64,000 nt of DNA from the NCBI GenBank assembly GCA_051294905.1, contig CM119371.1, positions 38,504,001-38,568,000 on the forward strand, in the 5' to 3' direction. The notes under the pieces were generated by a model. That model made no database searches. It was given only the letters and a program-made list of their open reading frames with translations, and was not told the origin of the DNA. The translations under genes and the position numbers were made by a program. Positions 3,371 through 41,821 of the stretch are shown here, piece after piece (positions within the stretch are counted from its first letter, which is position 1; every line of letters starts with the position of its first letter). The DNA is from Botryllus schlosseri (taxonomy: Eukaryota).

Positions 3371-3484
3371 ATGAACCAGGAGTCTGCGATCGCAGCGGCT
3401 ACAACGGCGGAAGTCGGAATTACGAGCTCTCGAATCGACCACAAAATGTCCTCCATGAGCTCGCTAGACCTCGAAGATTCGCAG
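3371..3484 (+). CDS. Candidate first coding exon 1a of the DPP6/10-like gene ([38 protein letters not shown])
   Basis: ATG plus 38 open codons ending CAG|GTATGT in phase 0, compatible with the exon-2 acceptor at 26574. Confidence 0.65.
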
Positions 3485-6400
3485 GTATGTATTGCGACTA
3501 GGCTTGTCAAAATCCAGTGGGACATGATCTCACATCCTGGAATGCAGTCGGAAACATTCAATTAAATAGTATATTCTTATTGAAATGAACCAGAATATTT
3601 TCGGCTGACACTCGTCAGGGGTAATCGTCAGCAACTAGCAGAGAATTGGAAAGAACATTGTATATCTTTCCAATTCTCTACTAGTTGCTGACGATTACCC
3701 CTGACGAGTGTCAGCCGAAAATATTCGGGTTCATTTCAATATGAATATACTATTTAATTGTATACTGAAGTTCTGTACCTCCAAGAAGCTTTTCGGAAAC
3801 ATTCGATCCAAAAACATCTCGAACTAATCTGATGTTAAGCGAGAGTAATTTTCTGGATTAAATTTATTTTTCAAGCTTTTGCGAATAAATTCAAGTGACC
3901 TGATTCAATCTTGTGACAGCTCATCAGTGTCACTGCCTTTGAGCCACCCGTCATTTCGAGTCACCGCGAATTTTATCTCGAATCAAGTAATTTCAAAAAT
4001 TTGTTAGTGAAGTCACGCAAATTTTCAAAGTAACTCGAGTGAAGTTAGCACATCTCAGATTATCAGATTGTCAGATTTTGAGTCAATTTTAAGTCATCAA
4101 AGTTTGTGTAGTTTGATTCGAATTTACAAATGCACGTGCACAATTGTATACCGCTTACAACCATGTCGAATACCCAACCTTGGATGCTAAGCCAGATCAG
4201 TGACTCTGGCGAAGTCAAGTCATTCAGAAAAGGTGACTCAAGTTTAGTTACGACTCGAGTGATGCAACCACGTTGTCACACTACAACAAACGGCGACATA
4301 GCGTGGTGGTACGTCACGCAGTCGTGACTTCCCACAGTTGCGGGTTCGAGTCTGATCGAGTTCGACTCCAGAATTACAACCTAAGTGTCGGAGTTTTATC
4401 TTTGCTCCTCCAACACTTGGGTTTGAAACTTGAGTCAACCGCGGTCGGACCTGAGCCTGTAACCCATTGTTCTTGAAGCCGAGGATTATATCACTACGTT
4501 ATGTCGCTCGCTACACGTAAGAAGAGTCTTAAAAAAGCCTAGAAGTGGGTCGTGCTACAAGTCGGCAAATACGGAATCATAATAAAGAATATCGGCCTGG
4601 TGTAAAAGGACCAATGTAGTCGAAACACCATGAAGATGAAACAACAACGCTACAAGTGGGTTTACGTCGGTTTATTAGATGATTTAATGCCGACAATATA
4701 GTGTATAATACAATCTTTGTCATCTTATTTCATTGCGTACTATTCCGCTAGGGGGCGCTAAGAGTCATTTATTATACTACGTCCTCGTTGCGAAGTTCTT
4801 TTAACTCTGTTTTCCCACGAGACATCGCATGGACTTAAACCGGCTGAATAATTCATGTGGTGCACACCCCTCCGAGAATGGTCTTCAATGACTAGTGCGA
4901 TGTAAACCCCAGTATTTTAGAGGAATAAAGGTCACCAATCAACACAAATTAGTTCTTCATCATTCCCGACACGACTGGAAACTTAGAAATCATGAATAGA
5001 TCCGTTTGAAAATCGAGTCCAATTGTAATGATTCATTTTCGGTTGTTTGCGAGAACCGAAAAGATTATTAAATCGACGGAAAATATACTTTTGTTGCTTT
5101 ATTTTCACCGTCGGAACGTAGAACGTAGATGTAGGACGTAGAACATGCACACTGCACAGGGATACGAAGCCTCAAGTTGCCACACTGTAACTATGGCCTA
5201 GTACAATGGTTCTCGACCTTTTTTAGACACGTCCCCCTTTATGATAGTGAAACATTTCGCGCCCCATTATCGTCATATCACAAAATCCAACAGGGATGCT
5301 AGCAACCCCAACAGATTGTTTGATGGCATGGAAGGTTATGACTGTTTATGAGAGAATTCCAAAATATGAAATTCGGTCTATATATAGAGAAACACGGTTA
5401 GGCTTCTTCGCACCCTCTTCAGATGCTTTCGCGCCCCCAAGGTTGAGAACCATTGGTCTAGTAGAAGTAGGAAGTATTTTAGATTACGTGTTACTGGAGG
5501 TCAAGGTTCGCCGACTTTTACATCATAAGTCACTATGATGTAAAATTTAATTAAATATCGTTGTTTTTGGTAGGAAAATCATTTATTTATGTTTTTTCTT
5601 TAAACACTGCCGTGGATGCAGTTCATACAGTGTACCAGTATTCATTAGTAATGCATCAGATTTCGAATGTGGTAGATTATTTTGTGAGATTGCGAAAATT
5701 TGTGGCGCACCGAAAGCTGGCCGATTAGTGTAAGCCTGGTTACCAAAGGTTAACAGACACCGGACTAAACGCAAAGTTCATCGGGCGCAATCGCATCTCA
5801 AACGAAAACAGTTCATTTCATTTCAGCAGTGCTGAATAATTGATATTCGCGGGTCGAATTCGCCCGTGTTTTATCAGAAGCGTACACGCCAGAGTAACAA
5901 TAGTGTCGTTTTGATGTAAACTGTACTTTGCGACTGACGACCGTGACGTTAATGAGCTCGACTCGAAGAAATAAGAGGCTTAATGGACCATTATTGACTG
6001 CATCTATGTTTAAAATAAAGTGGGGGTATCTCAATTATATGTCTTTTTCGAAATACTTAATGTACTACCCCGTATGGTATCAATTAGTCGTTTGGTGAAA
6101 TATGATAATCAGGAGTATATTGTAAATATATGCTTTGAAAATCAATGTATTTACTGTACCATGTATCATAGGGTAGTACTCCCTGGTAACAAAATTATGT
6201 ACCACATTTTTGCACTTTCCTGGTACGATACACGAAAAATCAATCCTGTGCACCCCTATATGATATATCAAGGGGTGGTAAATACCAAAGTAGGCCTCCT
6301 ACTACTACGTTCTCACTGTACACACGTAGCTTAAGCATATATAGAAGCAGTATACTCAAAACGACACGTGGCACTCAAAACGGCACGTGGGTAACTTTTC

Positions 6401-15400: not shown

Positions 15401-18400
15401 GCAATCAATTTGTATTGATATGCAGAAGGTATCGGGCATGGCGAGTTATTAACTGCAGACGGGAGTACAATGCTATTTTCTATTCTAAAGACAAGTGTGA
15501 CATATATCACCAATAAGCTCAGTTTCGATTATTTTTAAATCGTCCACGATGTTTGCGTCTGCCGTTAGTACACTAATCTTAAATCAGTGTTAGTGAGCAG
15601 AATCAGCGTAAAAATGGAGAAGTATCGCAGAAGCCGACGATTTACTCTGGGCGGAAGGAGAAACACGCCGATTTTGAAGATCGCAAAAATGCAAGGGAAT
15701 TTATTGGTAAGGAAATGTTAGGGTGTGGAATCCTTCTGGAAAGCAGGGTAACTGTATGAGATTTTATATGGATTTTTCCACATGAACATCACAAAATTAT
15801 TTCTGATAATATCGGCTTTTCAAAAGCACAGGGTTAAAGTTTTAAATGGGAGTGGTTTCGACCCAAAAATACTCCATAGCTACGCCACTGTTAGCAGTGA
15901 CGGCTCTGAGTGAACAATGGATACAAGAGCATCGTAAAACACAGACTCTGACAAAGAGATAATTCGATTTGTCTAGATTAATTAGAGCAAGATGCCGGTA
16001 ATCCAATTTAATCAAATCGAATATATGAAACGAATATATGCTTTCATTTTCATTATAGCCGAGTTTCTGATTTACCTGAAAATGTTGTATACTGTGAAAC
16101 GAACCAGCGCTTGCTGTGCAGACATTTGCCATTCGCGTGCCATATGAGAATAAACCCTGGTTTGATACGAACCGAACATGATTCGATTTCGCTTTCGCAA
16201 ATTCAGTAATTCCAATTCTAGTCAAATTTGAAAAATAAGTTCGTAGCTATCATTCTAATTCTCGTCTAACTCGGGAAAAACTGTCTAGCTATAATTTTAC
16301 TTCCACCCTCATTTCGAAAAGCTGAAAATCTTCCGAGTTACCAAACTCTGATGGAACACACCACCGGCGTCACGATGCACGCCAAATGATGACGCGTGTT
16401 TGCTAGTTGCCCTGTTGCCCTGCAACTAATTTATTTTCTAATTACTCAACTGTAGAACTAGAACGAGAACTACTGACTTTTGAAGATCAGCTGCTTGAAC
16501 TAAAACTAGAACTACTCAAAAAATAGTAGTTGATGGACAGTCAACTGGCAACAATAATTTTCACAATTCTCGTCGTAACACAAACACTCTGTTTGTCTAA
16601 CGACAATGCCACGGCTTGCATACCACTTACCTAATTACGATAGTAGCAGGCATGACACTATATAATCAAGGGTGAAAGCGTAATATGTAATGAATGCATT
16701 GGGGGCACGTTCCAGCGCACGTGACTGCGACCTCAATGAGCAACATATCAGCAGGGGTTCGTCAAAGGTCCCCCGTAATCCGTTTAACGGCCGGGAAACG
16801 CTCAGCTGTCGCGGCGCTAACTCGATGTGTTTCTGCAAAGTTAATTGCGGAGATTACGATCGATACAGAGCATTTTTTCGTGTTTTGTAAATTCTGGGAA
16901 ATGTGGGACTTTTCGTGGGCGAGCGGGAGAGCACTTAAGCAGAGACAATGTCGCTGTGAGATTATATCAGTTGCCGCGCTACGGTGGGATGAGTCCTTTG
17001 GCAATGTTAGGGTTCATGGTGTAAGTCAGTCATTTTATTTAAATTTACATCCGCTAAAACGCCATGAGATTGCGATATAGAGAAAAGGTAGAAAGGTGTC
17101 GAAACGACTTGGAGTGGTCGTGACTTTCCGAATACGCGGTGAGAAGTTAAACCGGTACAGAAATTGCTCAGCGAATGATATTTGGTCAGTACATACGAAT
17201 TTAAGGTTGTGTAAATTTGGGTTCTACTATAACATAGTTATCTTGTTACACGTCCGTTCATGTTTAGATTGAACCGGGCGTTATTCTTGTTGCTTCGTGA
17301 CTAGGGGAAACAATTTCCGACCTGCAAGTCGAATATTTAGACATTTAGACATTTTTTACTTTTCATAATATATAACTTTATAATTTTGACATGATACAGT
17401 TTACATGACGTACTTTGTGGTGCAATTATCCGGATTTTCCTTCATTATTTAGAACAGGGCTTGTGTTGATTTGAGCTCGATGCCATGGACAGCGTACTAA
17501 ACCTTTTTATACATTGCTTCTTTGTACAGTTGCAATTATACTTTTCGATATCCTCACCTTTGGCGCTCATACATCTTTTTCATGCCAGGTCGATAATTCA
17601 CATGGTAGTTCGACCGCATTTAATTCAACTATAAAGGTGTCGTCTCATTTATTATTCCTCGTTCTTTACATGCGATATGATCACTCTAGCGCTTGAAATA
17701 CTTCGAAGGGAGAGTCCGTTGCGTAGCGAATTATAAATGCATTTTTAGTGACGTACGAAGACGTACATGCTGAACGTAACCTTTATTATTGAGGATGCGT
17801 TGAAAATATCCTTACCGCGTGTTTGGAAATAATTGGTTGAGCAACTGTTCGTATAGTCATTGGTTCAGGAGTCTGTAGTGTGGTCTTAGTAGTAGAGTAT
17901 CATGAAAGCTATATCAGTTAGACAACGGTGCGTAGGTCGACTGTTCTGTGGAACAAGTCTGACCATCGGAGAGTGCATGACGTTCTGCCATTGTCAAACG
18001 TGTAATTTTTAATCTTGTTTGTGTGGAAAATTACCGAAATGACAAATTTTGCGTCGTCGCAACACCCCGTTCATTTTTCCATTGACGTACCTCGGAGTCA
18101 ACTTTTATCAAAATGCGCCACCCTAGCTTTTGCGAACAAAAGGAGTTCGTGTGTATCCTAAAAATAGTACTTTGAGCTTACGTCATCCGTTTGCCCGTAT
18201 TACTTCAATTGTAATGCCGGTGACGTCTTATTCGGTGCTACCATTGTTGATATACAATGTTCTTTTCAATCTTTTACAAAAGTAGCTGACGATTATCCGT
18301 GACGAGTGTCAGTCGAAAATATTCAATTTTATTCACATTGAATATATTATCCAGTTTTAAGCTATTCCATTCTATATCCAAAGCAGTGGATGTATATATT

Positions 18401-21400: not shown

Positions 21401-24400
21401 GTAATTGCCAACACGTGTATGCTGCATGTGCTACGAGCTGTTTTGTGCCCATTGTTGTCAGCTGTCTCCAAAATCACCGAAATAATGCAGACAAGAATGA
21501 TTCGTATCGACTTGTGGTGCCGTGAGTTGAGATCGTACAGTAACGAGGACTTTTTAATTATGTTAAAAATGTAACTGGAGATGCCGGGCATCGATCCCGG
21601 TGCCTCACACATGCTAAGCGTGCGCTCTACCACTTGAGCTACATCCCCGACATACTTTCAGGTATTCAAACTCAATCCATTGTTTAGTTGGATAACCGGA
21701 TAAACGTGAAGTGTTACGCGTTAATTATAAATTTATAGCAGTACAATCTCCGGTAACCAATCACTTACAGCCGCGGCGAGTTTTGTTATGATACGACCGC
21801 AGCCCCGTACGAGTACGTAGCGTCATATCCAACAGATCAGAACTAGATATCATGCGTGGGATAGATGATCTTTTGCAGGGGTGGCCAACCTGCGTCCGCA
21901 GGATGAAATTGGTGCGGCCGTCGACATGCAAAATAGAATTTACGAATTGACTGCTGCGATTCAGTGCGAATTTATTTTTCGATTTTAATATAGTTGTGCT
22001 CTTGCAATCGGAGCCACAAAGTACAGATGCGAACAGCAGCGAAAATGCTGCGCCCCATATAGAAATACCAACTTGGAATTGTGTGCTCCTCGCGAATAAA
22101 ATTTGTTTATAGTGCGTTTCCAGCACTCTTACACTGTACCGAGAATCCTGGTGGGAGGTCCATAATATCAACATGCAACTAATGACAAGAATAATAACAA
22201 TTGTGCCACACAAAGATGCGTTCATCATATATAGCTTGCGCTTAATTCCCGAAAACATCCCTCCGTCAACTTTACAGGTGAATCTGATCAGCTGGGCTGA
22301 GAGAGGATACAAATTTGATTGTTATATGTGAAACTACTAACATTAATGACGAAATTCATTCGTGAATATGATAAGATTTTCGCGCTTGGCGCGATCACAG
22401 CGTATCCCATGACTACTGACCTCTCATGATTTCGGTGCGTATAGTATGCCGATATCGAAAGTAGATTAGTTCGCAGAGTTTACCGGAAATGGAATTGGAC
22501 AGTTAATATTGGTATTTCGCATCCAGTTAGTTCATTACGGATATGCCCAGGAATGCGGCCGTGAATAGCTAAAAGGTTGGCCACCCCTGATCTTGTGGTT
22601 AGTGAAATAGTGTTCAAATTTGGATACACTGTGTATTGTAAAGGAAAACCATCGCCTAACAGCTACCAAGTTACAGAAAAATAAGATATATACAAGTCCT
22701 AACTATCCTGACGTGCTGATACGCTTCGTACACCCGGCGTAAATATGATTGTGCAAAGCAAATCCTCAAAATAAAATGGACGATGCTAAATCGTGTTCAG
22801 AAGTGCGCACGCCAACATCCTGCCTACACTGTAAAAAATAAAAACCTCGATTTACCGCGAAATGTTTGGAAGCACGGTAGCCAGACATTTCGTGGTAATC
22901 TAACATTACCGTTAGTCAATGTAAATTTAACTTACACTCGTCCGGTAATCTCACTTTACACGCCAGACTGTAATGTTACAGTCTCCTCCGCTATATCTAA
23001 TCTACATGTTGTCCTGTACATTTGCGATCGAGACTGTCATTTTACCGCCTACCTACCTACATGCTGTCCCTGTAAATCAGGATTACATACCAGCTTGTAA
23101 ATTCACGTACATCCATACCTATCGCAAAGCAACCCGATGCAAAAATATCGCAACATTTTCTTCACATCCCCAAAACGACATTGGAACTAACTGTATATTC
23201 ATTCATGATATCACGATGAAGTGGTATCGATGGAAAAATATTGCTGCTGGAGGTCTAATTCTTCTTTAGGAGACATGCAGTAACACGAGTGGTCTCAAGA
23301 AAACGTGAATTAATTCCACCACCGGCCAAACTTCCAATTGTTTCTTTTTCTCGTTCTCATTCCTTCTGTGTAAGTAGTATCTTGCAGTTCCACTAAAAAT
23401 AATTCATGCGTAAGTCGCTATATAAAGCAAAGTTCCTAACCTGGACAGTGGACATGACATTATAAAGACTAAGACAAATAGGCTAACAAAAATATAACAT
23501 GTTTTGAAGTACCGGTACTGGCACATTGTGTGATGACGGCTCCGCCTTTTACATGACATAGCAGAGATTCATGACTTTATCTCTGTATTGAAGCAAAAGG
23601 TTCCTAATTTAAGGTGGCATGTGTGGCAAACAAATCCAGCAGTGGATGAAAACATATCTATGCTACGGCCCGAAAATGACATTACCAAGCCAACAGTTTC
23701 AACTCCTCCGCAGCGGAGTATGTGGTCACTATGTATATAAGTCGACAAATATCCCAAAATAGAACAGAGAATGCGGCGAATGAAATATATCAATCATGAA
23801 ATCTAAGTCATCGAGGGCTGGTGCGCAGAGTCAGATATTCACGGTAACAAATACTATGTAGTACTGTATTACCTTTTAAGATGCGTATTCCATTCAGCAT
23901 TCCTAGGAATCTTCAACGATCGTGTCCACTTTCTTCAAGCACAACAAGCTTCGCACCACCCTTTGCTCAAATCTCACTAATGGCCACTGGCCAGACGACC
24001 CTCGAACGATTTCGAAGTAAACGGTATTCATCCGCTGACACATGACACCAATAATATTTACTGGCCACGTTATAATGTTTGATCTGGGTCGTTTTTTCCA
24101 TACAGAAACATTTATCATAGCATATAGTCCCTTTTTTCATCTAATTTCGTATAAATTGATATATGTTCCATGTGTTGTTCACTACTTACTGTACTTACGT
24201 AACCAGACGCTGCTTGTGATGTCACAGTTGTGCGTTGGTTGTTTACTACGAATCTCAGAAAAAGCAGTCACCTAATGTAACCGATTACAGGTCGCCTTGT
24301 CCGCCATTAACAAATGGTCAGCTGAGCATGCGGTGCTGATATTTCTAGTTCCCCCGAGCAATATTATACATCCTGAACTAATTTTCTAACTTATCAGCCT

Positions 24401-27400
24401 TATTCGTGACAACGAATGTAACCAGCGAGACTGGCCGTACAGCCATTGCCTTATAATATAATATGGCTACGGTGTACCACATTAGCTACGATTGTCAGTT
24501 ATTTCTTGTACCCTACTAAGCTTAAATTGATACTAGGGCCAACAGTTTCGGTATGACAGACCGCAGTCTCGCAAACGAGGTTCAATCAGGTCAAGTCACC
24601 TCTAGAATGATATATCAGTAACATTCAGTTCTACGTATACATTGGCTGCAGCGATTTTGAAGCTAATCAATTTTGCCAATAGCCCGGTAAACTGCAGTAA
24701 CGAGTAACTGTCAGTAATTATGCGAAGAAATTCTGGTAACTTACTTTACAGCTATATTAAGGTAATATTACATATTAAAATGTAAAATGACAAGCTACGC
24801 ACAGTAATTGGCTGCGACCGGTAATTTGTGGTAAAATTTACAGAGATTTCCCCGTAAATCTACCAGATTTTTTACAGTGTACATTTTAGCTGAATATCGG
24901 CTGTATCGAATAATCAAAATGTGGTCGCATTTGTCGTATATTCCAGTATCAAATAGGATTTAGTAGGTAATGGTGTCAATGTAGCAATTCGTGGAATTGG
25001 AAACGTGTAGCAACGTGGAAAGAAAAACACATCGTCTAAATGATCACGTAAATTATAGTGTCCTCGATTCAAGTGAACTCACGCACCTTAGACCCAAAGA
25101 AAAGCTCGTCCTTGAATCACCCCCTGAATATTAAGTTAGAACAGGTTTAAAGTCAGGAATTATGACAGTGACAAACACAATTTATGAATAATCCTGTTTG
25201 TACGAGACATTTTCGTCTGAGACCATTCAATCTTCCATTTTTGTACTTAAGAATCGACTTTGATCAAAATCTGACAACCGGTTAAGTGCATCTGTACGCC
25301 TGCATTATGAGAATTTTTATGCCGGTGACGTAATATTTTATGACGTGATTGTTGATGCACATTATTCTTGTCAATTCTCTAATAGTTGTTGACCAATACC
25401 GTCGAAGAATGTCAGAAAAATTATTCGGAGGTCAAGCACCAAGGATATAAACTAATACATACGTTGTCTTTGCCGCAATGCATTATAAAAAATAACTGGA
25501 GATGCCGGGCATCGATCCCGGTGCCTCACACATGCTAAGCGTGCGCTCTACCACTTGAGCTACATCCCCCACGACCAAGATCGCGGATACCATCATTACT
25601 AATTTGTGGTAGAGTGGTGAATCAAACAGATTTGGAGTGTTATCAGCATCAGACAACAACACAGCCCTCGACAACTCATCTCATACGATCGCCGTCAATT
25701 TAAATCGAAGGGAATGAAAGCCTCGATTGCGACAGCTGTCTGATTTGAGAGAACTGGAAATTATACAGTTCTAGCTGAGATTTTAGATATATATTGTTGA
25801 ATTTGTGCTATCACGGAACGACTTATATAACGTAGCTAATTGATATACATTGCATACAGTACACGGTATGATTGTGTATATCTCCGTATGTACGCTTTGT
25901 AAGTATAAATGAAAATTATGATTCGTCTAGGCGAATTCCGTATGTTTAACATACAAGTCCATGTCACTAACACGAAACGAAGGAGATATATTTGCTTGAT
26001 TCTTCTTGATTTACTCTTATAGACATGGTGCACAAATCATCCGTCATTTTCTTGAAATTTTTTTCGGACCGAAACATCACAAGACCGCGATATAATGGAA
26101 AGATAGGAGGGTTTCTAAACGACTTGCAGTAGACTGACAGTTTGAACAATATCAGCTGCACTGCATCATACATCTCTTCATTACAGAAAAAAAAACAATG
26201 GAATAGCATATTTAGATTGAAATGAACCCGAATATTTTCGGCTGACACTCGTCAGGGGTCAGCAACTTGGGGAAAAGAACATTGTGTCTCAACAATGGCA
26301 TCAAAAATATGACGTCACCGGCGATCGTTGATATACAATTTTCTTTCTTCACTCTACTAGTTGCTGACGATTACCCCCGACGAGTGTCAACCGAAAATAT
26401 TCGGGTTTATTTCAATATGAATATACTCTTCAATTGTATATTGAAGTTGTGTACCTCCAAAAAGCTCTTGCAAATGAAAAACCTATATACAAACGAAATT
26501 TGCTGTATAGTTGCTGTTGAACTAACACATCGTTTGCATGTTTCCGCAAATGAAACATTGTACAAAATTGCAGGAACTTGTTGGCAGCAATCCGGAAGAG
26601 CGGAACTGGACCGGAATCACCATTTCGTTGGGAGTCATCTTGACCGTCATCGGACTCGTGGTGCTGTCCGTGATTATACTGACGCCGGGTAAGAATTATT
26701 ATGAATGACTGACCTCACTCGACTAAAAATAGTTTTACAACTTGTCTTAATTACAGATAGGGTTGCATTTAAAATCAAACTTATAAAACAAACACGTTTG
26801 AAACATTGCCCTTGTTTAGAACCTGTCTTTGTTGTTGTTTTTGTGTTTTGTTAGCCATATCATCAGGAGTTCATATGAACGACTGTGCTAAAATGTATAT
26901 CGTCAGCATGAGTTCAAAATTTCAAACCATAATCCGATTTGTCTACCGGTCTACATTAAGTTGTTGTTAATCTCGTCGTTGTGTTTCAAACAAAAAAAAA
27001 CATGGTTTGTATCACTTGTCTACAAGACGTGAATGTATTCCTAGAAACAGGGACGACGAATTCATGAAATCACTGATGCTTGACAGAATTTCGAATTACT
27101 CCTAATATATTTTACATATGTGAGCTGTTTTGTGAATATGATACCGGTTCTTGCATGGATCCCGAAGTATTTCGATATGATGTTTTTCTACATAACCTCT
27201 AATGTTACATTTATTGGTAATTGACAGATTTGGCTCAATTTTTATTTGCATCGATAACCTATCTATTGACTTCTGAATGTAAAATTCCTATGTTAAATTC
27301 AGAAACGCGACTCACCGTCGTACCGAATGTGACTCTCTCGGCTATCGTGACGAAACCGTGGACTATCGCCGACGCGCAATGGGTTGGGAGTCATCTCATG

Positions 27401-33400: not shown

Positions 33401-36400
33401 AGTTAGTTGAATAATTTCCAACAGATTAACACGCGAAAAGAAAAGCAATGTGTGACGTGCCACTTCTCTTGGATCGGAGAAATATCCGGCGAACCGTGGA
33501 AGAAAATCGAGTATCGATGCGATTATTTTGAAGCAAGCTTCGGGGAATCCACGGAATGGTTCTACGCCAAGTGCCTAGGTGCGAGAATTGATTCGTCGTA
33601 TTTTTATTTGATAAAGCGAGAATAGGGAAATGCATGTCTCATATATTGCTATATGTCTTATAAGCGCATGTTCTTGTGACTAACAAACAAAATGGTGACC
33701 AGCCATGAAGTACTTGCTGACAGGGGTTTGATTTTAAAGAACCTCCTCTTCTACAAAACATATTTTCGACAAAACCACTTTCATTGTCCGTTTTGGAAAT
33801 TTTTAATGTAAAAAGTATTGGAATTGGTTTGTATCACTTTGATGAATGTGACCGTTATATCAACTTTGCAGAATTTAACCTTCACCTAGTAATCTGAATA
33901 TATATATCGAAATTGCATATATCAGTGCAGTGATTTATCATTTTACGTTAGCCGCATAAATGCATCTCGCAATTTTCAAAGTAGCCAACACCGATTGACT
34001 GCTATGTTTGTTAGGTGTACCCCTCAACAAATCTTTTGTACTTTAGTAATTTATATATCTTCATTTTCGACTTCCCCTTGAATTAGTTTTGACAAGTAGT
34101 TCTACTTGTAATTGCGTTGAAATGTTCTGCGAATAGCATATCCTTATACTTTAGTATCAACGCCGACAACTTTGACCACGTCTTGTGTCAATTACCCTAT
34201 AGGCCTAATCACCTGAGTTCCATCCGAGTGATATAGTAGATATAAATATATCAAGATCTATTTCCTATATAACGACAGTCTCCACGTCGCGGGTTTCATT
34301 CAAAGTGAAAGTTAAAAAGCGTTTCGTCAATATCAATTGAATCTTGCAGGCCCTGGTTTTCCGTTTGGAGGAATCGCAAAACTCAACGATACCGCCGTGC
34401 CTGCTACGATACGCGTCATGCAACCGACTGACCTCACCATTCAAAACATGGTGCTACCGAATCAGTCAAATCACGTCATCAGAACTGCATCCGGACACGG
34501 TAATAAATACCAACAGCAGAAGGCGGCGTTTCATAAATCAGCTAATCCTAGTGGCGTGTATTATCATCAGAGGAGGCCGGTAACGCAGTACTTTTTCGCA
34601 GTAATGAAATATAAGTTATCTATTCCAGTTGAATTCTAAAAGCGTGCCACGTCAGCACTCGGCCAAATCCATTTTTTCAGCTACATCCTGAACATACTTT
34701 GGGGACCTTTAATTTTAAATTCGCGTGAGGTATTTTCAGAACGTTTGCCTCCAATACTTGTAAAAGGGTACAACGTTGTTACATTATCCTACATCTATGG
34801 TTTCATTTAAAACAAACGGTGTTTTAAACTACTTTGTTTGAAACATGTTTTAAACATTGTTTTTAATAAAGGCCTTTAAAAAAATTGTGTTTTTTTAAAG
34901 TTGTAAAAGCATGCCATATTTGTGTAAATACTTTACAAAAAAACATGTTTTATGAGCCTACGGACAATTACCACCCGATGTAGCCGACGTTTATCGATAT
35001 GGGATGGTTGGAACCCTCAAAATACTCGTTTAAACAGCAATAGTACATATATTTCGTGAAAGGAGCTATTTTTACCCTATATTGTCAACTGTCAATGTCA
35101 ATCCACTATGACGTCTCAATTAAATATTCGTGACGTCATGACTTTTAAAAAGCCGTAAAAAACATGTTTTAAATTAGGGTATTGTTTTAAATATGTTTGT
35201 TTTAGATAGATTTTTGTTTTAAATGCAACCCTACCTATATCTGCCTGTGTAGCAATATGCTACTGACTGTTTCGTCCTGGAGTCGATTTGTAGCACTATG
35301 ATAACAGAGTCTTGCGAATCGCATCAATTCAATTCAATCAAAATATATGTCGGATTGTCCGTGGAACGTGGTCTTGAAAACATCTTTAGAATATTTCCTC
35401 ATTAACCTATGGATATTCCACCGGCAGAACTAAAGTTGTTAGTTTTGGCGAAAGTTTATTCTGATGAAGAAATTTTTGACGAAAATGTACAACTGGTCTT
35501 ACGTTACGACATCATGATGAGCGGTGAAAAGTACATAGATTACGGTAGTTCTGGATAGTATCGACGACCACGTTTAGGGGAACGTTTACGTATTACTGCT
35601 AGAGCTCGACAAAATGGAATTGCACAAAAACTGGAGATGCCGGGCATCGATCCCGGTGCCTCACACATGCTAAGCGTGCGCTCTACCACTTGAGCTACAT
35701 CCCCGATGATAACGAGTCATTATACGCTTTATGTATCTGGATGTAGCTACAAGTGCCCCTCATTATCAATGACAAGCGATAGCACTCATGAGGCGAATGA
35801 GGTTGCAACCTGATAGTTGCCTGCATTTATTGAGTTGTTGTTATATTAGTGTTGATGGTTCAACATCGATATTATCATTGATCATTTAACACCATTGCGA
35901 AGTTATTATTTATTATATTCATTTTGCTGCCGACTTAAATAACAAACCACGCTCGTTTTAGGTTGACGCGGATTGTATGGCGAATAAAAATCCAGACATC
36001 CATATAGGGTTTCTCAGATTGTAAGGTTCAATCGTTTGGTTTTACGCCCGGTCTGCCCTTTTCAGTCTTTTGCTATAGCGATAGAGTTGATTAACTGGAC
36101 GTTGATCAATCAATCCTATTATAAACTATAGGGTACGGTCCGATTTGAATAATCCGTCACATAGATTCTATTTTCAGATATCAGGATAAAAGCATTACTA
36201 CCAGCGAGCGTACACGCCGGAGAAAGGCCAGTCGTGTTCTTCAAGTAAATATATACATATCAGTATATGTTATTCTGATTTATACTAGGACGACGGAACC
36301 AAATTAACAGACCCATTACCATCAGTCAGCTACGTAAAAATTATTTCTCGCATTATCTTGCTTATGCATTATGCATTATCTTACTATCGAAAAGCAACAA

Positions 36401-39400
36401 TGTTAAAACATTAACTGTCTACTATAAATTCTACGTACGCGGCCATAAATGATACAATGTTATATCAACAAGCCTTATAATATGCATGCAATATTCAATT
36501 TTGGGGATAAGGCCCTACTAATTGCGTGGGCATGTTCCATAGTCACTTTCAAGTGGCGCGGTATACACCAATACGGTAGGCCTATATAGTGTCAACTATT
36601 TTATCTTCGCTCTATTTGCGATTGGTGCATCTATCTTCGTACATTGGTAATGTAATCACAAAACCAGTCTATCCAAGGCTTGTTATCTAGCGATAATATG
36701 CGAGCGCAGTAATTGAACATGCTTTGAATGTTAAAGCCTAAAATTGTACTGTGCTATGCAAGTCAACCGCTATACGGGAATAAAATAAAGTATATCAGAA
36801 TGGTGTAAATGACCATTGCATCTCAAAACACCATGAATACAACAAACAACGTTTTGTCATCGTGCTGTGTTGTTGTCACGTGGTCAGATAGTACATGATG
36901 GTGTTGGATTATTTACACAACGCGCCGCAGTTGCGTTATTGACCATTGTATTGCCATCCGATGCTGACAACACTCCAAATTAATCAAATTCCATCACTTG
37001 ACTACAATATCCATAGAGTTTATATCGCTGGGAAACTCTCGGGGATGTAGCTCAAGTGGTAGAGCGCACGCTTAGCATGTGTGAGGCACCGGGATCGATG
37101 CCCGGCATCTCCAGCTTTTACTTTCTGAATTAAATTGATGGTAAATGCAAAGGGATGCAATATATTACGAAATCATCAGGAATAAACAGGATTAGGGCAT
37201 AGATTTCAAACAAAATAAGGCTGTTTCATTCACAATACAAATGATTCAAATCAATCATCTGGCCCAAAAGCCAGCTTTGTGGATGATCCACTTAAATTGG
37301 TACGATGAACGTATGTGCATAGCAATGACCACGCGGTTCGGAGTGCTTAAAGTCATATGCAGAACCGTGACAGCACTTCGTCATCCCCCAAAACGTTGGT
37401 CTTGGGCCCCATAGGATGATAAACCGAACTTATGGGGGGCATCGCCCCCTCAGGCTACACGTTTTTTGCCGCTACTGATCATCCACATTGGGTGCTCATT
37501 TAGTGTGTACGCTTGTTTCGCCTAAACGAACGAAGCGCGAAAAACTTCTATAATTCATGATTGAATCGGTCAATATGATTGGGATTGCATATATATTCCT
37601 ATCAATTTTTATCCCCTCTCTGCTTACGTAATCAAGTTTACTGGTATAGCTGAGTGAGGTGTGTTGGAAAAGGTAGGACCCCTAAGTAAGATTTAAACAT
37701 CTTTGGGCGGACCCGTTCGGTTGGTATAATGACTTCGTTACATGATGCTATTTCGTGACCTCCTATATGCTATGTCAAAAGATATTGAAATCACCAAAAC
37801 GTAGTAAACTAAAAGACGTAGGCCCACACGCGATTTCAAATTGGTATTTCTTTGCTCGCAAACAATATTGCCTCGATCCTTTTCGGCCCAGCTCTTCTCG
37901 CTGCTGATCATTCTGCCACACTTCTCGGAGTCGCATGTTATATGGCCTATAATTTTAAATGTCTTGGTGCGTCGTGGCGCGGTAATGGCCGACGCCGAAG
38001 TGCCCTTTTCTATAAATCATGCGTATTTTGTTGGGGGAAGGGTACCCAATAATCAAGATATTTGACAGCATTAAATCGAGCGCAGGGCGAAAAACTTTTT
38101 GAACGAATTTTTGAAACATTTCCAAAAAAATACTCTATGATTTATTGCAATTCACGATATAATTTGGGGCCCCCTTCGAGCTCGAGCCCCCCGCAATTTG
38201 GGGGTTTGGGGTGTGGCAGTTACGGTCCTGGTTATATGAAACGATATTTTGGGCAAAACTGCATACTTTTCCAACCATGAAAATGTAAATATGCGGCGTT
38301 ACTTCCGCCTATACTTGAGTAGCAATACTGCCTACTTTTTGCACCCTGGTATGTAATCGATCTGAACAATTTCAGGGGTGACATCGGGTCTCAAACGGTT
38401 ACAGAAAAGTTCGATGTCGACCTTGCAACATACATCTCCAAGACAGTCGGTGCTATCGCTGTGTTCGTCGACGGAGCAGGTACGCTATTTAGGTATCTCC
38501 ATGTATATTTTATTTTATATTTAACGCTCTGTGATGCGATGATATTGCAGGTTCCGGTAAAAGAGGAGAGCTACTGCTCCGGGAATCGTTGAAAAAGTTA
38601 GGTGCTCCGGAAATAGAAGATATGGAGACTGTTGTCAGGTAGAACATAGACTATTCCGTTGTGCATTAATTAAGTAGGCCTATATAATATGCTTGGCAAT
38701 GCTTCGACATTTGTTACCAATTGATTTGTCTGTTGGGTTTGACAAAATGTTGGCTGCATGGAAGGATGTAGTATATATACTGAGCTCGATTACTGACTAT
38801 CGCACCTGTGATCACCACTTTTTGTAACAGTTCCTCTATTTTTGGAAATAAACTGCGATCAGCAATTCAGTATTTAAGACTCGAGTGTCGAAAATAATTT
38901 GAAATCGTGTGCCTATGGATCACATCAGAAGATGTTGAACTCCATTCACTTCCTTTAGTGATAAAAGTAGTCGGCCGTGGTACTGAAGTAGAAATAAATT
39001 AAGTAATGCCTTTAATTTATAGTCGATTATAAGTCGCGAAGTCGAAGTTTTCAATAGGTGTCGAAACCACTAGATATGGAAGTATAGAAGGGGTCCGAAA
39101 AATATTAACACCCTTCCAATGATTGGATATGAATCAAATGCGTCAATTGTAATGAACACAATGCAGTGGGTTCTTGCTTCATGCACTATCTCAAATCCCA
39201 AAAGGTGACAGGCCTACACGAAAACAGAACCCGCTAGCTCTGGGCTATATGTTCCTTGTTCATATAGAGACTGGTGCAATTGACTGTTTTTCAGCCTTCG
39301 GAAGGGCGTGAAATCACAAATAGGTACTTGGAAGTACAGTTTACCTGATACCCTGCGATAAGGTGAATTTAGTGAAAACATGTTTTCGTTAACAGTATAC

Positions 39401-41821
39401 ATGAATGTACCACATCTTTCGGCATTGATGCGTTAAATCGTACGTTGCAGATATCTATCGGCGGTATATCTCGAGAGAGTTGACCCCACAAGAGTCGGCA
39501 TCGTAGGAACAGGCGGATATGGCGGATACGTTGCAGGCCTCGCCACGACAAATGCTAACTTCAAATGCGGGGTGGCACGGTCCCCAGTCACGGACTGGAA
39601 GCTTTTCGGTAAGATATCGCGGCTTTCCCTGACTACTGACTTTTGGAAGTACAGTGTGTTGGTCTGAACGGCTTTACGAGCTAAATCAGCAGTCCAAAGC
39701 TAACGGTTTAAATAGGAGGTCATGGTGAATATCCTCAGTTTTGTATTCACATCTGCGAACATTATTAATTATCAGAGCAAAGCACGATCGTTAGTCGTGC
39801 GTCGTGATTCAATTTCACATTCTGTCGAGTCCCTTTGTCAAATTCACATCGTAGAATCGTTTGCTGCCGAACGCATTCTGGGAGCGCCATCAAGACAACA
39901 GATCAAGTACAGCGACAATAGTCTTCTAAAGAACGTCGTCAACATGCAAAAAGGCTCAAAATTGGGATTGTACCAGGGATTGCAGGACAGTGAGTTACAT
40001 TCCATAATATTATATATGGGACGAAATGGTGACGTAATATTCATGGTGGTATGTCTAGTTGCGAAATGCTGGGTTTTCTATGGCTTTGCTAATTCCTTTC
40101 CTACATCCCTCATTCACATGATTGTAATATGGCGTCGGGTGGTGCTGATTTAAATATTTGAAACAACACTGCACGCTTTGGTGGCTGGCAGCGCGTGAGC
40201 CCGGTTAGCTCAGTCGGTAGAGCGTTGGACTTTTAATCCAACGGTCAAGGGTTCAAGTCCCTTATCGGGCGTCTTTTTTCCTCTGTCATCCGCGAAATCA
40301 TAAGTGAGAACCACCAGAATTCGAGCAGTAAAAGTCCATTTATGTAGTGACGAACAACTCATTCTGCAGCATCCCATAGATAGAACATTCACAATCACTG
40401 TTCCCTCGAAGCTGCGCGCGCGCGCGGCCGCACACCGCTTTTAAAGTCACCGCGCACAGAAAAACGTGCACCGCCCACAAGAAAGCCGAAGTGATGAATT
40501 TTATTTCTTTTTTATTCGTTACGCACTGTTGTCCAAGGGACCGCGCAGTGAGTTGGTGAGTGCGCGCAGACTCGTGAAAATTAGAGTGAACGTTGTTCAC
40601 AATATTACATTAAATAGTAACACCATGTCGACCATGGTCTTTTCGTGCGTCAATCATACATGTTATGAGGAATCCAGAAATTGCCAGGTTTATGTATCAG
40701 TTCCCTTACGGTCACGGTTACGCAAAATCCTTATCTGCGGAACATAAAGCGCATAAGCAACTCGTTGCCGAACTGTCATATCACGAATTCCAGCAGAATA
40801 GAAGATATGGCTCAATCACGCGTGACGGATGGTTGCCCAACATGTGAGCATGCGACAAAATGAAAAACGACTGTTGAGCATAAGACACAGTAACACGGGT
40901 GCGCATTAGCATGATGAATGATGACACACGTGCACGGGGACACATCAACTTTGCGCCATATCAGCATGCGGACACCTGAGCATGGTGACACATTAGTGTG
41001 GGTGGGTATGTATCGGCATGGTGACACATTGGCAATAGGACATAAATGAGCATGGAGACTCATGAATATGGGGAAACATCCACATGGGGAGACTTGACAA
41101 TGTCTACATATGAGCATGGTTACAGAAGAGCATCGGGCCACAAGCATGGTGACAGTTTAGTATGCGGCATCTTCAGCGTTAGACACATTAGCATGCGACA
41201 ATTGACCATCACGACATCATGTCAAAATACAAGCAGGCTCTACTTAATGAATACTATAGTCAGCGCGCGAGGGTACCGGCCAACGACCTGGTATATTCAC
41301 GTCTCATATCGATATATATGCCGTGTCATCTTCATAGCTTCTCCATTTTATGTTATTTTCTTTTACTTGTATGTCGGTGTACAATGTACAATGTACATGC
41401 CTCTTACGTAGGCTACATTTTATAGCCCAAGGCGGCTTTCCGATTAAACGACTACTCCAAGTCGTTTCGACTCCTTCCCGTCATTTCATTTAATAATAAT
41501 CTCATGGGGTTTGGAAATGAAACTGAACTGCACTGGTGATGACATTGACGAAATAAATAATATATCTTTACAGGAAAAGTAAACATGCAACATTCAGTGC
41601 TGCTGAAGAAGGCCGCGCTACTCGAAAACGTTCCGATGGATGCAATTACTTTCACTTACCATACCAGTACTGGCGACAGAGGGTCGCGAAAATCGATATT
41701 GCTTGAATCAAAAGTTCTACAATCGATCAGCGCGTTTCTGAAAGGTTGTTTGCTGAAGGACTCTGACGAAAAATGGCGACAAATGAAGCTCTTTGATGCG
41801 AAGTATTTGACAGGAACTTGA
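3371..41821 (+). CDS. DPP6/DPP10: Inactive dipeptidyl peptidase 4-family (S9B) type II membrane protein, DPP6/DPP10-like; spliced, 18 coding exons, 831 aa with exon 1a
   Basis: Hand-spliced exons, all GT-AG and phase-consistent: 3371-3484, 26574-26688, 27303-27478, 28625-28752, 28814-29016, 29257-29411, 30046-30128, 31439-31613, 31978-32088, 32154-32285, 33425-33578, 34350-34499, 36178-36244, 38376-38479, 38551-38638, 39451-39608, 39855-39989, 41574-41821 (sum 2496 nt). Motifs: [15 protein letters not shown] plus TM helix (DPP6/10 juxtamembrane signature), [56 protein letters not shown]. The choice of first exon is less certain than exons 2-18. Confidence 0.92.
3560..3792 (+). mobile_element. 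Fold-back hammerhead-bearing insertion, family A (Penelope-like or retrozyme derivative)
   Basis: Inverted arms of about 100 bp, an extra tail on the right arm only, flanked by the direct repeat TCGGAAACATTC (3548-3559 and 3793-3804). Confidence 0.75.
3687..3730 (+). ncRNA. Minimal type I hammerhead ribozyme (family A), intact
   Basis: GCTGAC-gatt-ACCC-CTGACGA-G(TGTCAGC)C-GAAA-ATAT-TC-GGGT: canonical core CUGANGA/GAAA/UH, 4-bp stem I, palindromic stem III AAUAUU, loop II complementary to the upstream GCUGAC. Confidence 0.8.
5204..5455. mobile_element. hAT MITE
   Basis: TIR CAATGGTTCTC(G/A)ACCT; TSD GCCTAGTA/GTCTAGTA; internal fragment repeated inverted at about 13060-13200. Confidence 0.8.
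6864..7711. mobile_element. hAT non-autonomous element
   Basis: TIR CA(A/G)(A/G)GGTGGGCAAAC; perfect 8-bp TSD AATTAAAC; GCGGGCCGCA subterminal repeats. Confidence 0.85.
8634..9108 (-). mobile_element. Fold-back insertion, family B, with a 14-bp target duplication
   Basis: Inverted arms of about 175 bp (8663-8839 and 8936-9110), one-sided tail of about 28 nt, direct repeat TCAAAACGAATTAT at 8620-8633 and 9109-9122. Confidence 0.75.
8706..8753 (-). ncRNA. Variant-core minimal hammerhead ribozyme (family B, U3-A8)
   Basis: Reverse complement: TGTGCC-g-TTAACTC-TCGATAA-G(GGGCACA)C-GAAA-AGTCT-TC-GAGTTAA; 7-bp stem I; a second copy lies on + at 9022-9068. Confidence 0.6.
11218..14286. mobile_element. 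hAT non-autonomous element (outer member of a nest)
   Basis: TIR CAGTGCTCTTCAACC / GGTTGAAGAGCAC; TSD ACATAGAG/ATATAGAG; GTACAC subterminal repeats. Confidence 0.75.
11813..13629. mobile_element. hAT (Tip100-like) non-autonomous element, nested
   Basis: TIR CAGTGGCGTAGCCAGA / TCTGGCTACGCCCATG; perfect TSD CACCACAC. Confidence 0.85.
15614..15706 (+). CDS. Candidate alternative first exon 1b ([31 protein letters not shown])
   Basis: AAAATGG start context, 31 open codons, TTG|GTAAGG donor, phase 0. Confidence 0.5.
16901..17020 (+). CDS. Candidate alternative first exon 1c ([40 protein letters not shown])
   Basis: 40 open codons, GTAAGT donor in phase 0, preceded by a CpG-rich non-repeat stretch (about 16700-16830). 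Confidence 0.35.
18100..18350 (+). mobile_element. Family A copy, degenerate, single arm
   Basis: Similar to 55580-55810 (CAAAAGGAGTTCGTG...GCTGACGATTATCCGTGACGAGTGTCAGTCGAAAATATTC); boundaries approximate. Confidence 0.7.
19899..20015 (+). CDS. Candidate alternative first exon 1d ([39 protein letters not shown])
   Basis: 39 open codons, GC-elevated, AAG|GTAAAT donor, phase 0. Confidence 0.5.
20278..20395. repeat. Degenerate (TAACCC)n-like tract followed by CACATGCTCA repeats
   Basis: TAACCC/TAACCG/TAACCT units seen directly. Confidence 0.55.
20519..20623 (+). CDS. Candidate alternative first exon 1e ([35 protein letters not shown])
   Basis: 35 open codons, strongly GC-rich relative to flanks, AAG|GTGAGA donor, phase 0. 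Confidence 0.55.
20702..20950 (+). mobile_element. Same SINE family, diverged
   Basis: TAGCGTAATGGTAGAGC head, CTTCCCGGCTTGGCGCTCAGCATT body, TATGCCGCAAAAACGTCAAGGACAAAA 3' part. Confidence 0.7.
21576..21648 (-). tRNA. trnA-AGC: tRNA-Ala(AGC), copy 1
   Basis: 73-nt cloverleaf GGGGATGTAGCTCAAGTGGTAGAGCGCACGCTTAGCATGTGTGAGGCACCGGGATCGATGCCCGGCATCTCCA; anticodon loop TTAGCAT; downstream T-run terminator. Confidence 0.95.
21876..22589. mobile_element. hAT non-autonomous element
   Basis: TIR CAGGGGTGGCCAACCT; TSD ATCTTTTG/ATCTTGTG. Confidence 0.85.
22827..24879. mobile_element. CACTG-ended (EnSpm/CMC-like) non-autonomous element
   Basis: TIR CACTGTAAAAAAT at both ends with flanking TA; no transposase ORF recognised. 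Confidence 0.6.
25315..25430 (+). mobile_element. Family A fragment, highly decayed
   Basis: GGTGACGTAATATTTT...CAATTCTCTAATAGTTG matches the family A arm. Confidence 0.5.
25497..25569 (-). tRNA. trnA-AGC: tRNA-Ala(AGC), copy 2
   Basis: Identical to copy 1; T-run downstream. Confidence 0.95.
26200..26469 (+). mobile_element. Family A fold-back copy
   Basis: Inverted left arm, and a right arm ending GTACCTCCAAAAAGCTCTT. Confidence 0.75.
26226..26259 (-). ncRNA. Minimal hammerhead ribozyme core (family A)
   Basis: Reverse complement of ACCC-CTGACGA-GTGTCAGCC-GAAAATATTC-GGGT; the spacer to the pseudoknot strand is deleted. Confidence 0.65.
32955..32985. repeat. (TACA)n microsatellite
   Basis: Seen directly. 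Confidence 0.9.
35632..35704 (-). tRNA. trnA-AGC: tRNA-Ala(AGC), copy 3
   Basis: Identical to copy 1; GTTTTT downstream. Confidence 0.95.
37041..37113 (+). tRNA. trnA-AGC: tRNA-Ala(AGC), copy 4
   Basis: Identical to copy 1; GCTTTT downstream. Confidence 0.95.
37400..38230. mobile_element. Decayed Tip100-like hAT remnant(s)
   Basis: GGGCCCC/GCCCCC subterminal motifs and a GGCAGTTACGGTCCTG end; boundaries uncertain. Confidence 0.4.
40199..40271 (+). tRNA. trnK-UUU: tRNA-Lys(UUU)
   Basis: GCCCGGTTAGCTCAGTCGGTAGAGCG-TTGGA-CTTTTAA-TCCAA-CGGTCAAGGGTTCAAGTCCCTTATCGGGCG followed by a T6 terminator. Confidence 0.95.
40396..40595. mobile_element. hAT MITE, 200 bp
   Basis: TIR CACTGTTCCCTC / GAGTGAACGTTG; perfect TSD TTCACAAT; relative in the opposite orientation at 43401-43584. 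Confidence 0.8.
40900..41215. repeat. Degenerate minisatellite, period about 17 bp (GAGCATGGNGACACAT-like)
   Basis: Recurring AGCATG(G/C)NGACA units. Confidence 0.6.

Follow-up and report, generated by a model that had tools for sequence, protein, structure and literature searches.

The window analyzed here comprises 64,000 nucleotides of the Botryllus schlosseri genome (GenBank assembly GCA_051294905.1, contig CM119371.1, positions 38,504,001 to 38,568,000 of the forward strand), and positions below refer to this stretch unless another genomic locus is named. At 3556-3763, a stretch of 208 bp forms a foldback with arms of 99 nt that are 96% complementary, yet asymmetric, and that includes a hammerhead-like motif at 3687-3730 on the plus strand. 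An earlier note on this DNA, made from the sequence alone, had described the motif as a minimal hammerhead ribozyme with a loop II pseudoknot, residing in the most conserved part of a repeat present at about ten loci, and had deduced a distinct self-cleaving-RNA mobile element family prone to being mistaken for a miniature inverted-repeat transposable element (MITE). Its reading of the motif can be followed letter for letter in the window sequence, and about ten repeat loci are indeed present, starting at 3556, 18249, 25359, 26195, 47916/48099, 50486, 52723/52918, 55710, 57489/57730 and 59737. This repeat forms the end of a young and very abundant canonical endonuclease-bearing Penelope-like element (PLE), referred to as family A in the following, while the motif probably represents this family's version of the PLE minimal type I hammerhead, with helix II being completed by a pseudoknot. 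Cleavage is predicted to occur after C3726.

The type I hammerhead core is complete (C3 U4 G5 A6 N7 G8 A9, G12 A13 A14, A15.1-U16.1 and H17), and the core blocks at 3701-3726 appear in the order CUGANGA, GAAA and cleavage site (C-G-S). Features of PLE minimal hammerheads are likewise present, namely the G10.1-C11.1 pair, a short helix I and a palindromic 15.2-16.2/loop 3 segment. Helix I consists of 4 bp and covaries between family A and a second PLE family, B, described below; helix III reaches 2 bp inside one molecule and 6 bp in a dimer. The hairpin part of helix II is confined to 1 bp, with a further 5-6 bp being formed with sequence upstream of helix I, as GUCAGC of loop II is fully complementary to the upstream GCUGAC, and two of these pairs covary between the families. 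Sequence comparison supports a helix II made up of the closing pair plus the loop II/upstream pairing, which would result in a quasi-continuous helix of 1+6 bp in place of a hairpin. By general pseudoknot geometry, an H-type pseudoknot can be inferred in which C11.1 would be continuous with the 3' strand GUCAGC and U3709 would cross the deep groove of the 6-bp helix. Three other registers were tried and rejected: using the first CUGACGA (3688-3694) as core provides neither helix I nor an adjacent helix II, treating G3708 as the unpaired nucleotide leaves no G10.1, and a 7-bp register GCUGACG/UGUCAGC leaves no linker beside the G10.1-C11.1 pair. When allowing up to three mismatches, the 20-mer core was matched 13 times in the window versus 0.02 expected from 100 shuffles, with exact matches at 3599-3618(-), 3701-3720(+), 26236-26255(-) and 55758-55777(+). 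A descriptor combining core, G10.1-C11.1, 4-bp helix I and UH was found in random 64-kb sequences of the window's composition at a rate of 0.01 per window (3 in 300 sequences), compared with four matches in the real window, three of them with the upstream pairing as well. Among the further copies listed as intact in the earlier note, 55744-55787(+) is so, while in 26226-26259(-) the stretch from GCUGAC to the core is shortened by a deletion of 5 nt, resulting in an upstream pairing segment that overlaps helix I, and 57509-57552(-) carries two changes in loop II; on the other hand, the minus-strand motif of the same foldback at 3589-3632(-), where U replaces G at 1.1, had been overlooked.

Longer copies of the repeat, both in the window (55560-55851, 57567-57821 and 52790-52900) and elsewhere in the genome, continue in the 5' direction into a coding tail. 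Searching the 495-Mb genome for this tail resulted in at least 7704 first-look candidates; of the family A candidates, the best 150 were scored and all of them matched (150/150), with open frames of up to 857 aa and with many copies arranged as inverted pairs. Only best candidates having been scored, the genome-wide counts are lower bounds. At one genomic locus (L067), a partial copy is followed head to tail by a complete unit. The latter encodes an 857-codon stop-to-stop open reading frame (ORF) in which YVDD and the GIY-YIG motif VVYEF..YVGRT..H can be read by eye. Pfam RVT_1 scores 32.2 bits with this ORF, which is above the cut-off, and Pfam GIY-YIG 15.6 bits, which is below its cut-off of 22.6, while the nearest Atlas clusters are animal reverse transcriptase (RT) proteins, one of them bearing GIY-YIG on 27% of its members. 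The stretch 3705-3812 of the window aligns by tblastn with residues 1-36 of this stop-to-stop ORF at 83% identity. The motif is found twice at L067 (1317-1366 and 4000-4049) at a spacing of 2683 bp, the family A unit being about 2.7 kb long. Upstream of the complete ORF, the stop codon of the preceding one (1226-1228), the motif (1320-1363, with C17 at 1359) and the next ATG (1374-1376) follow each other, with a non-coding spacer of 145 nt from stop codon to ATG and a predicted cut 14 nt upstream of the first ATG. Hence, family A shows the single ORF of PLEs with RT and C-terminal GIY-YIG as well as their partial tandems, inverted copies and tail, and its motif occupies the position of the PLE pseudo-long terminal repeat (pLTR), as is the case for PLE minimal hammerheads. 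The earlier note had named PLEs as a typical context of such ribozymes, which holds true in view of the RT/GIY-YIG ORF and the spacer position of the motif. In contrast, a distinct self-cleaving-RNA family is not apparent, as the repeat is the end of an autonomous PLE and the palindromes are ordinary PLE insertion structures; that interpretation is partly supported, right in kind and wrong in framing.

Evidence for the hammerhead and its pseudoknot comes from PLE family B of the same genome, whose endonuclease is 51% identical to that of family A over 179 aa and for which at least 6541 first-look candidates were obtained. Family B was sampled at locus L069 and in 12 further downstream regions of its subfamilies. 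The complete motif is present at L069 and in five of the 12 regions, whereas interruption or masking of the spacer precedes the motif in the remaining seven. It reads GUGCC, G(U/A)UA, ACUC, UUGAAAA, G, A, GGCAC, C, C, GAAA, AGUCUUC, GAGU and shares with family A the same architecture element by element, i.e., a 4-nt linker, a 4-bp helix I, G10.1, one unpaired base, a loop II pairing upstream of the linker, C11.1 and C17, along with a homologous tail and ORF start. Family B differs by a U3-A8 core, by five instead of six pseudoknot pairs, by a 7-nt near-palindromic helix III, by a spacer of about 200 nt (145 nt in A) and by an ATG that follows the cut at 24 nt (14 nt in A). In the alignment of both families (A2), 15 of 45 motif columns differ. 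Eight of these differences constitute four compensatory pairs, namely C-G to G-C and A-U to C-G in the pseudoknot, C-G to U-A in helix I and C3-G8 to U3-A8 in the core, the latter being a known variant of PLE hammerheads (PMC4209133), and six affect linker, N7, unpaired base and loop 3. In contrast, U4, G5, A6, A9, G10.1, C11.1, G12, A13, A14, A15.1, U16.1 and C17 are invariant. Altogether, 5 of 14 pairs change on both sides, the fifth being a pseudoknot U-A to C-G in the single copy at 57506, and 94.6% of alignment cells are paired, compared with 20-45% when partners are slid. These compensatory changes support both hammerhead and pseudoknot, so that core, helix I, palindromic helix III and loop II/upstream pairing, as proposed in the earlier note, have been kept in a diverged PLE family. 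Moreover, all subfamilies of A and B keep their own family's motif: between B1 and B2, the upstream spacer is identical at 145 of 194 positions and the motif at 45 of 46, and the family A motif is unchanged in an older A subfamily that was found via the old copy at 18100-18355 and whose 3' untranslated region differs by a 17-20-nt indel.

Table 1. Features of the foldback at 3556-3763, of its hammerhead motif and of related copies in the window.
Feature	Position	Strand	Remarks
Left target-site duplication, 12 bp (TCGGAAACATTC)	3548-3559		Exact direct repeat; longest in shifted control windows 8 nt
Inverted 5'-truncated PLE-end copy, short arm	3560-3654	-	Outer end varies between copies: AATT.., TACAATT.., ATATACAATT..
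Second hammerhead-like motif copy	3589-3632	-	From the minus-strand sequence of 3586-3635; U instead of G at 1.1
Junction of inverted and sense copy	3655-3664		Indels and extra bases vary between copies (alignment columns 196-232)
Sense PLE-end copy	3665-3792	+	Spacer end, hammerhead motif, first 17 ORF codons and tail
GCUGAC	3687-3692	+	Upstream strand of the putative pseudoknot, partner of loop II; two-sided changes at 3 of 6 pairs within the alignment; duplex -8.1 kcal/mol
Linker GAUU	3693-3696	+	Between GCUGAC and helix I
Helix I, 5' strand ACCC	3697-3700	+	One C-G pair replaced by U-A in family B
Core box CUGACGA (C3 to A9)	3701-3707	+	C3-G8 replaced by U3-A8 in family B
G10.1 (3708) and C11.1 (3716)	3708-3716	+	Close the 7-nt loop II; U3709 unpaired; GUCAGC at 3710-3715 pairs with 3687-3692
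G12 A13 A14 and self-complementary AAUAUU (15.1 to 16.1, 3720-3725)	3717-3725	+	Minimal helix III; proper formation only between two copies
Predicted scissile bond after C17 (C3726)	3726-3727	+	Deduced from hammerhead numbering
Helix I, 3' strand GGGU	3727-3730	+	From sequence and covariation with family B
First ATG of the PLE ORF	3741-3743	+	14 nt after the predicted cut; ORF frame taken from L067
One-sided tail	3764-3792	+	ORF start sequence lengthening the sense arm past the palindrome; long arms end near unit position 135
Right target-site duplication	3793-3804		Exact 12-bp match to 3548-3559
Old decayed copy	17984-18350	+	Endonuclease tail 52% identical to family A, then the motif, in which G replaces C3; family A motif preserved in its relatives
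Foldback copy	26195-26469		Minus-strand motif with 5-nt deletion between GCUGAC and core
Longer PLE-end copy	55560-55851	+	Last ca. 30 ORF codons, stop codon, spacer with TGACGTCA (55682-55689), intact motif (55744-55787) and tail
Foldback copy, sense arm extending into the coding tail	57489-57821		Minus-strand motif 57509-57552: loop II and upstream partner both changed (pair 6-30, U-A to C-G)

Besides the motif, the spacer harbors a second conserved island composed of a palindrome resembling the cAMP response element (CRE-like; TGACGTCA in A, TGCGTCA in B) and an A+T-rich box, located at 1258-1272 in L067, at 55682-55698 in the window and at the family B loci L070-L080 (TGCGTCATACTT). This island, found about 30 nt upstream of the usual start of short copies, is a candidate internal promoter. 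Some loci deviate in this region. At L008 (about 2495-2520), a family A copy lacks the segment between ..GATTGTTG and TATTCGGGTTC.., which comprises the spacer end and nearly the entire motif; this is probably a microhomology deletion, albeit with a curious end point a few bases before the predicted cut. The family B spacers of L074 and L077 have received, within about 12 nt of each other, the same unrelated repeat, which carries short repeats of the GAATTCGGCCC type and terminates with CCTAA/CCCTAA-like telomere-type repeats. In addition, a foldback element rich in CGAGTC/GACTCG adjoins PLE ends of both families (L069, about 930-1500; downstream parts of L079 and L082) and may be either a MITE preferring PLE ends or a target preferred by PLEs.

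The anatomy of the foldbacks was deduced from eight copies aligned with their flanks and from a survey of all retrieved arms. Each element consists of one long and one short arm, the long one running about 30 bases further into a fixed tail of 29-34 nt ending with ..AAGAAGCTCTT, whereas the outer ends of short arms are found at unit positions 87-105 and sometimes at 127. Exact target duplications of 12-14 bp were detected in 5 of 27 foldbacks (12 and 14 bp; shifted controls not exceeding 8 bp), while none were found at the same stringency in the remaining 22. Strong 5' truncation, partial tandems, an adjacent inverted 5'-truncated copy and a one-sided tail of 30-40 bp are described as hallmarks of PLE insertion (Craig et al. 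2021, PMC8557442; PMC11167929; here and below, the literature is cited for those parts of the papers that were compared). With its asymmetric arms, tail and variable junctions matching these hallmarks, the foldback is an ordinary PLE stub. The longer copy at 55560-55851 starts with a short inverted duplication at 55561-55597 (an 18-nt arm TGGTGTATTTTGATAAAA and its complement), indicating that the inverted-copy junction forms wherever a copy happens to be truncated. Classification as a MITE was rejected in view of the one-sided tail, the unequal length of duplications, the variable outer end and the continuity with the RT/GIY-YIG ORF. Consequently, a chance hammerhead look-alike in the terminal inverted repeat of a cut-and-paste MITE, which the near-perfect 208-bp palindrome and the mere hairpin matches in Rfam might bring to mind, has practically no probability left: besides the unpaired tail, the 12-14-bp duplications of differing length, the variable outer end and the ORF continuity, also the chance rate of the motif and the covariation with family B stand against it, and this reading is refuted.

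The abundance of short units, far more common than the ORF (a read depth of 700-1900 over the unit at L067 versus 0-5 beyond 1431), and the finding that several arms are 100% identical to that of the window would also be in line with a separate non-autonomous family, retrozyme- or SINE (short interspersed nuclear element)-like, which has its own master copies and employs the PLE machinery. According to one proposal, animal retrozymes represent non-autonomous PLE sequences (bioRxiv 10.64898/2026.07.22.740005). Such a family is nevertheless very improbable, as the short unit is collinear and near-identical with the stretch where spacer and ORF meet in full units, the junctions and outer ends vary among copies, which would follow from every foldback arising in its own insertion event, the 5' truncation points form a series reaching into the ORF, and the copies are dispersed foldbacks without head-to-tail arrays. 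Assignment to the animal non-LTR (long terminal repeat) retrozymes, i.e., head-to-tail tandem repeats with a non-coding unit of 170-400 nt, each with a type I hammerhead, was likewise dismissed on account of the dispersed foldback copies.

A number of results weigh against the motif being a pseudoknotted and active PLE hammerhead. The check with Rfam hammerhead models, suggested in the earlier note, was negative throughout: no hammerhead family was found in the window at gathering score, only hairpin (miRNA-like) and no hammerhead matches were obtained for 3500-3800 at E-values up to 10, and in the genome search with RF00163 none of the best 73 among 70463 candidates exceeded the cut-off of 34, the best one reaching 22.8 bits and lying elsewhere. 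The nested hammerhead fold alone is calculated at +5.3 kcal/mol, and the predicted monomer fold at -10.5 kcal/mol, with CUGAC/GUCAG and CCGAA/UUCGG pairs burying core and cut site. The covariation stems from two independent lineages only, and one of the 15 differences between A and B breaks the outermost pseudoknot pair in the latter. All genomic copies span the cut site, meaning that the templates of inserted copies were uncut. In the single-cell RNA reads, neither a drop nor a pile-up of read ends was visible at the site, the library type being ill-suited to such ends. Moreover, the PLE minimal hammerheads of Cervera and De la Pena (2014, PMC4209133) possess a hairpin helix II of 3-8 bp (6-8 bp for the consensus families presented there) as well as an unpaired nucleotide separating A9 from G10.1, and in the alignment rows compared from Fig. 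S3 of that paper, Ciona intestinalis included, helix II is a hairpin throughout; the motif described here, in contrast, has a 1-bp hairpin and an unpaired nucleotide after G10.1 and takes the rest of helix II from upstream of helix I. Conservation among genomic copies also does not speak for the ribozyme. In 88 arms from the best-scoring copies, a sample biased towards the query, mean conservation amounts to 0.909 for the 12 core positions, 0.931 for the pseudoknot, 0.891 for helix I, 0.944 for other motif positions and 0.894 for the flanks, so that the excess conservation of core nucleotides which the earlier note had made a test of its reading was not observed. The exact 44-mer is retained in 13 and the core with all pairs in only 16 of these arms. 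The claim of a most conserved part roughly applies to a block at 3674-3749 (about 0.9), but C3726 (C17, 0.75) and G3727 (G1.1, 0.80), which together form a CpG, are the least conserved positions within 3687-3730.

Other observations bear on the fold and on the reads. In both families, C11.1-G12-A13-A14 can pair with U16.2-U16.1-C17-G1.1 (3715-3728 in the window and the minus-strand equivalent in L073), resulting in a cut-site hairpin of CCGAA/UUCGG in A and CGAA/UUCG in B, which may either simply follow from the hammerhead constraints or represent an off-state. For the alignment to L067, single-cell RNA (X23) as well as contigs of uncertain kind (X1 and X2) were used. On both strands, read depth tracks how often the short unit occurs in the genome, and 69% of the aligned reads continue into unlike sequence, so that these data tell little about the element's own transcript. 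The range of high depth is 1297-1431, with an approximately fourfold step up near 1297; as such a step reflects the number of genomic copies starting or ending there, it fits a template 5' end about 30 nt downstream of the A+T-rich box.

Several of the above findings would be expected if the motif descended from a PLE hammerhead but no longer cleaved, being kept as an RNA signal for binding of the RT/endonuclease protein, for positioning of RT initiation or for control of translation start: helix II is down to one closing pair, no Rfam model matches, the monomer fold hides core and cut site, and every inserted copy spans the cut site, with no read ends there. Comparable evidence exists for other PLEs. 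For PAc, the Poseidon element of Anolis carolinensis, hammerhead mutants were reported to be without effect on in vitro insertion and the site to be devoid of RNA-seq read starts and ends (PMC11167929), while Naiad PLEs thrive without canonical hammerheads (PMC8557442). Loss of cleavage is still considered unlikely, since two families that differ at a third of the motif positions (15 of 45) agree in every strictly required core nucleotide, since the known exchange of C3-G8 for U3-A8 (PMC4209133) makes sense only for a hammerhead active site, and since C17 and the palindromic helix III are kept. The test on genomic copies, moreover, has little power because inserted copies decay neutrally; constraint is visible in the active lineages, as shown by the subfamily and family comparisons. 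Further lineages were not encountered: tblastn of both families against about 250 kb of retrieved DNA resulted only in A, B and decayed A-like copies, and a metagenome scan with the A/B consensus pattern gave eight matches, roughly estimated to be the number expected by chance, none of them with a UH site or a matching downstream helix I.

With a cleaving PLE hammerhead as the preferred reading, the following course of events can be proposed. Transcription would start in the spacer, about 30 nt downstream of TGACGTCA and the A+T-rich box. Two motifs, residing either in tandem units or in two RNAs, would pair via AAUAUU into a double hammerhead, which would cut after C17. This reaction is likely to be slow and would probably be assisted by the element's protein, as in PAc, and the resulting RNA would have its 5' end 14 nt before the ATG. 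Internal initiation of reverse transcription about 66-70 nt downstream of the cut site would give rise to the tail, and most genomic copies would derive from uncut RNA. For the short foldbacks, the enzyme would copy only the 5' leader and then add the inverted copy; as the first internal start would be only about 135 nt from the 5' end of a spacer-started transcript, 135-nt leader copies could far outnumber full units. On a more general level, it is put forward tentatively that in a tunicate PLE clade (two families with thousands of copies each) the hammerhead has been rebuilt with a near-wholly pseudoknotted helix II, having its 5' strand upstream of helix I, a fixed 4-nt linker and one groove-crossing nucleotide. 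Since the upstream strand is transcribed first and loop II of family A can pair with the core box instead, the knot could also act as a folding switch deciding on whether the RNA is cut or kept whole.

Regarding the surroundings, an ATG-led open stretch at 3446-3490 ending with CAG|GTATGT (3484/3485) resembles a first exon with splice donor. If 3484/3485 is a donor, the foldback (3560-3792) is located about 75 nt inside a host intron, with the complete motif (G at 1.1) on the plus strand, which is also that of the ATG-led stretch. Five transfer RNA (tRNA) genes are found within 19 kb, at 21576-21648(-), 25497-25569(-), 35632-35704(-), 37041-37113(+) and 40199-40271(+), four of which are identical with anticodon loop AGC (read as Ala) and one of which has UUU (Lys); a decayed PLE fragment at 25359-25428 is only about 70 bp away from one of them.

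No new kind of biology is opened by these findings. For annotation, thousands of MITE-like palindromes of 200-250 bp in this genome are to be masked and classified as what they are, stubs of PLE insertions. In the literature, PLE hammerheads have been searched for with descriptors demanding a hairpin helix II (PMC4209133; PMC8557442), and such descriptors as well as Rfam models miss the pseudoknotted form. Hence, PLE families scored as being without a canonical hammerhead may carry pseudoknotted ones. If the motif cleaves, it would represent a compact, covalently clamped hammerhead design and provide a natural two-family covarying test system. PLE hammerheads as such are already known, and the comparison supports the pseudoknotted helix II, undescribed in the PLE literature compared, as the novel part. 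The 20-mer core was found neither in a literature search nor in two supplement files of PMC4209133, and in the parts compared of PMC8557442, PMC10085705, PMC6765202 and the 2026 retrozyme preprint (0 occurrences of 'pseudoknot' in the latter) no pseudoknotted PLE hammerhead was found.

PLE pLTRs are reported to always contain a hammerhead, and self-complementary helices III of the dimer type have been described for these ribozymes (PMC4209133; PMC6765202). The minimal hammerheads of PMC4209133 agree with the motif of family A in their location in the spacer/pLTR just before the ORF, type I block order, 4-bp helix I, G10.1-C11.1 pair, palindromic 15.2-16.2/loop 3 implying dimer action and thousands of dispersed, mostly truncated copies, and with family B additionally in the U3-A8 core variant. 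In PAc (Mob DNA 2024, PMC11167929), the hammerhead overlaps the pLTR/ORF junction and thus has a position similar to that in family A, the tail likewise stems from an internal RT start downstream of the hammerhead, and uncut RNA is the main template. In PAc, however, the ORF starts within the motif and the cut is located 26 bp after the start codon, whereas it is predicted 14 nt before the ATG in family A; moreover, cleavage in PAc has been shown and is protein-assisted, while it is a prediction for the motif described here. Animal non-LTR retrozymes and Sm-alpha-type SINE-like repeats (PMC7229834; PMC6765202) are also short non-coding hammerhead retro-copies in need of dimers for cleaving, but consist of head-to-tail repeats or of units combining a promoter with a ribozyme, their helices I and II being canonical, instead of truncated ends of coding PLEs arranged as foldbacks. 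Pseudoknots within the ribozyme are likewise a feature of the non-circularly permuted hammerheads SGC, CSG and GCS (Eckert et al. 2023, PMC10085705), in which a stem I strand is joined to a stem II strand by a 3-4-nt linker. The motif was not assigned to this class, since its core order is the classic C-G-S one and displacement is limited to the distal 5' strand of helix II. A further likeness is given by an example from 2011 (PMC3088659), where stems I and II are kept alongside each other by Watson-Crick pairs that a loop forms with a flanking tail. This example is a type II hammerhead from metagenome data, its loop I being paired with the 3' tail that follows stem II, whereas in the type I motif of the animal retroelement described here, loop II would pair with the 5' tail before stem I and helix III is of the dimer type.

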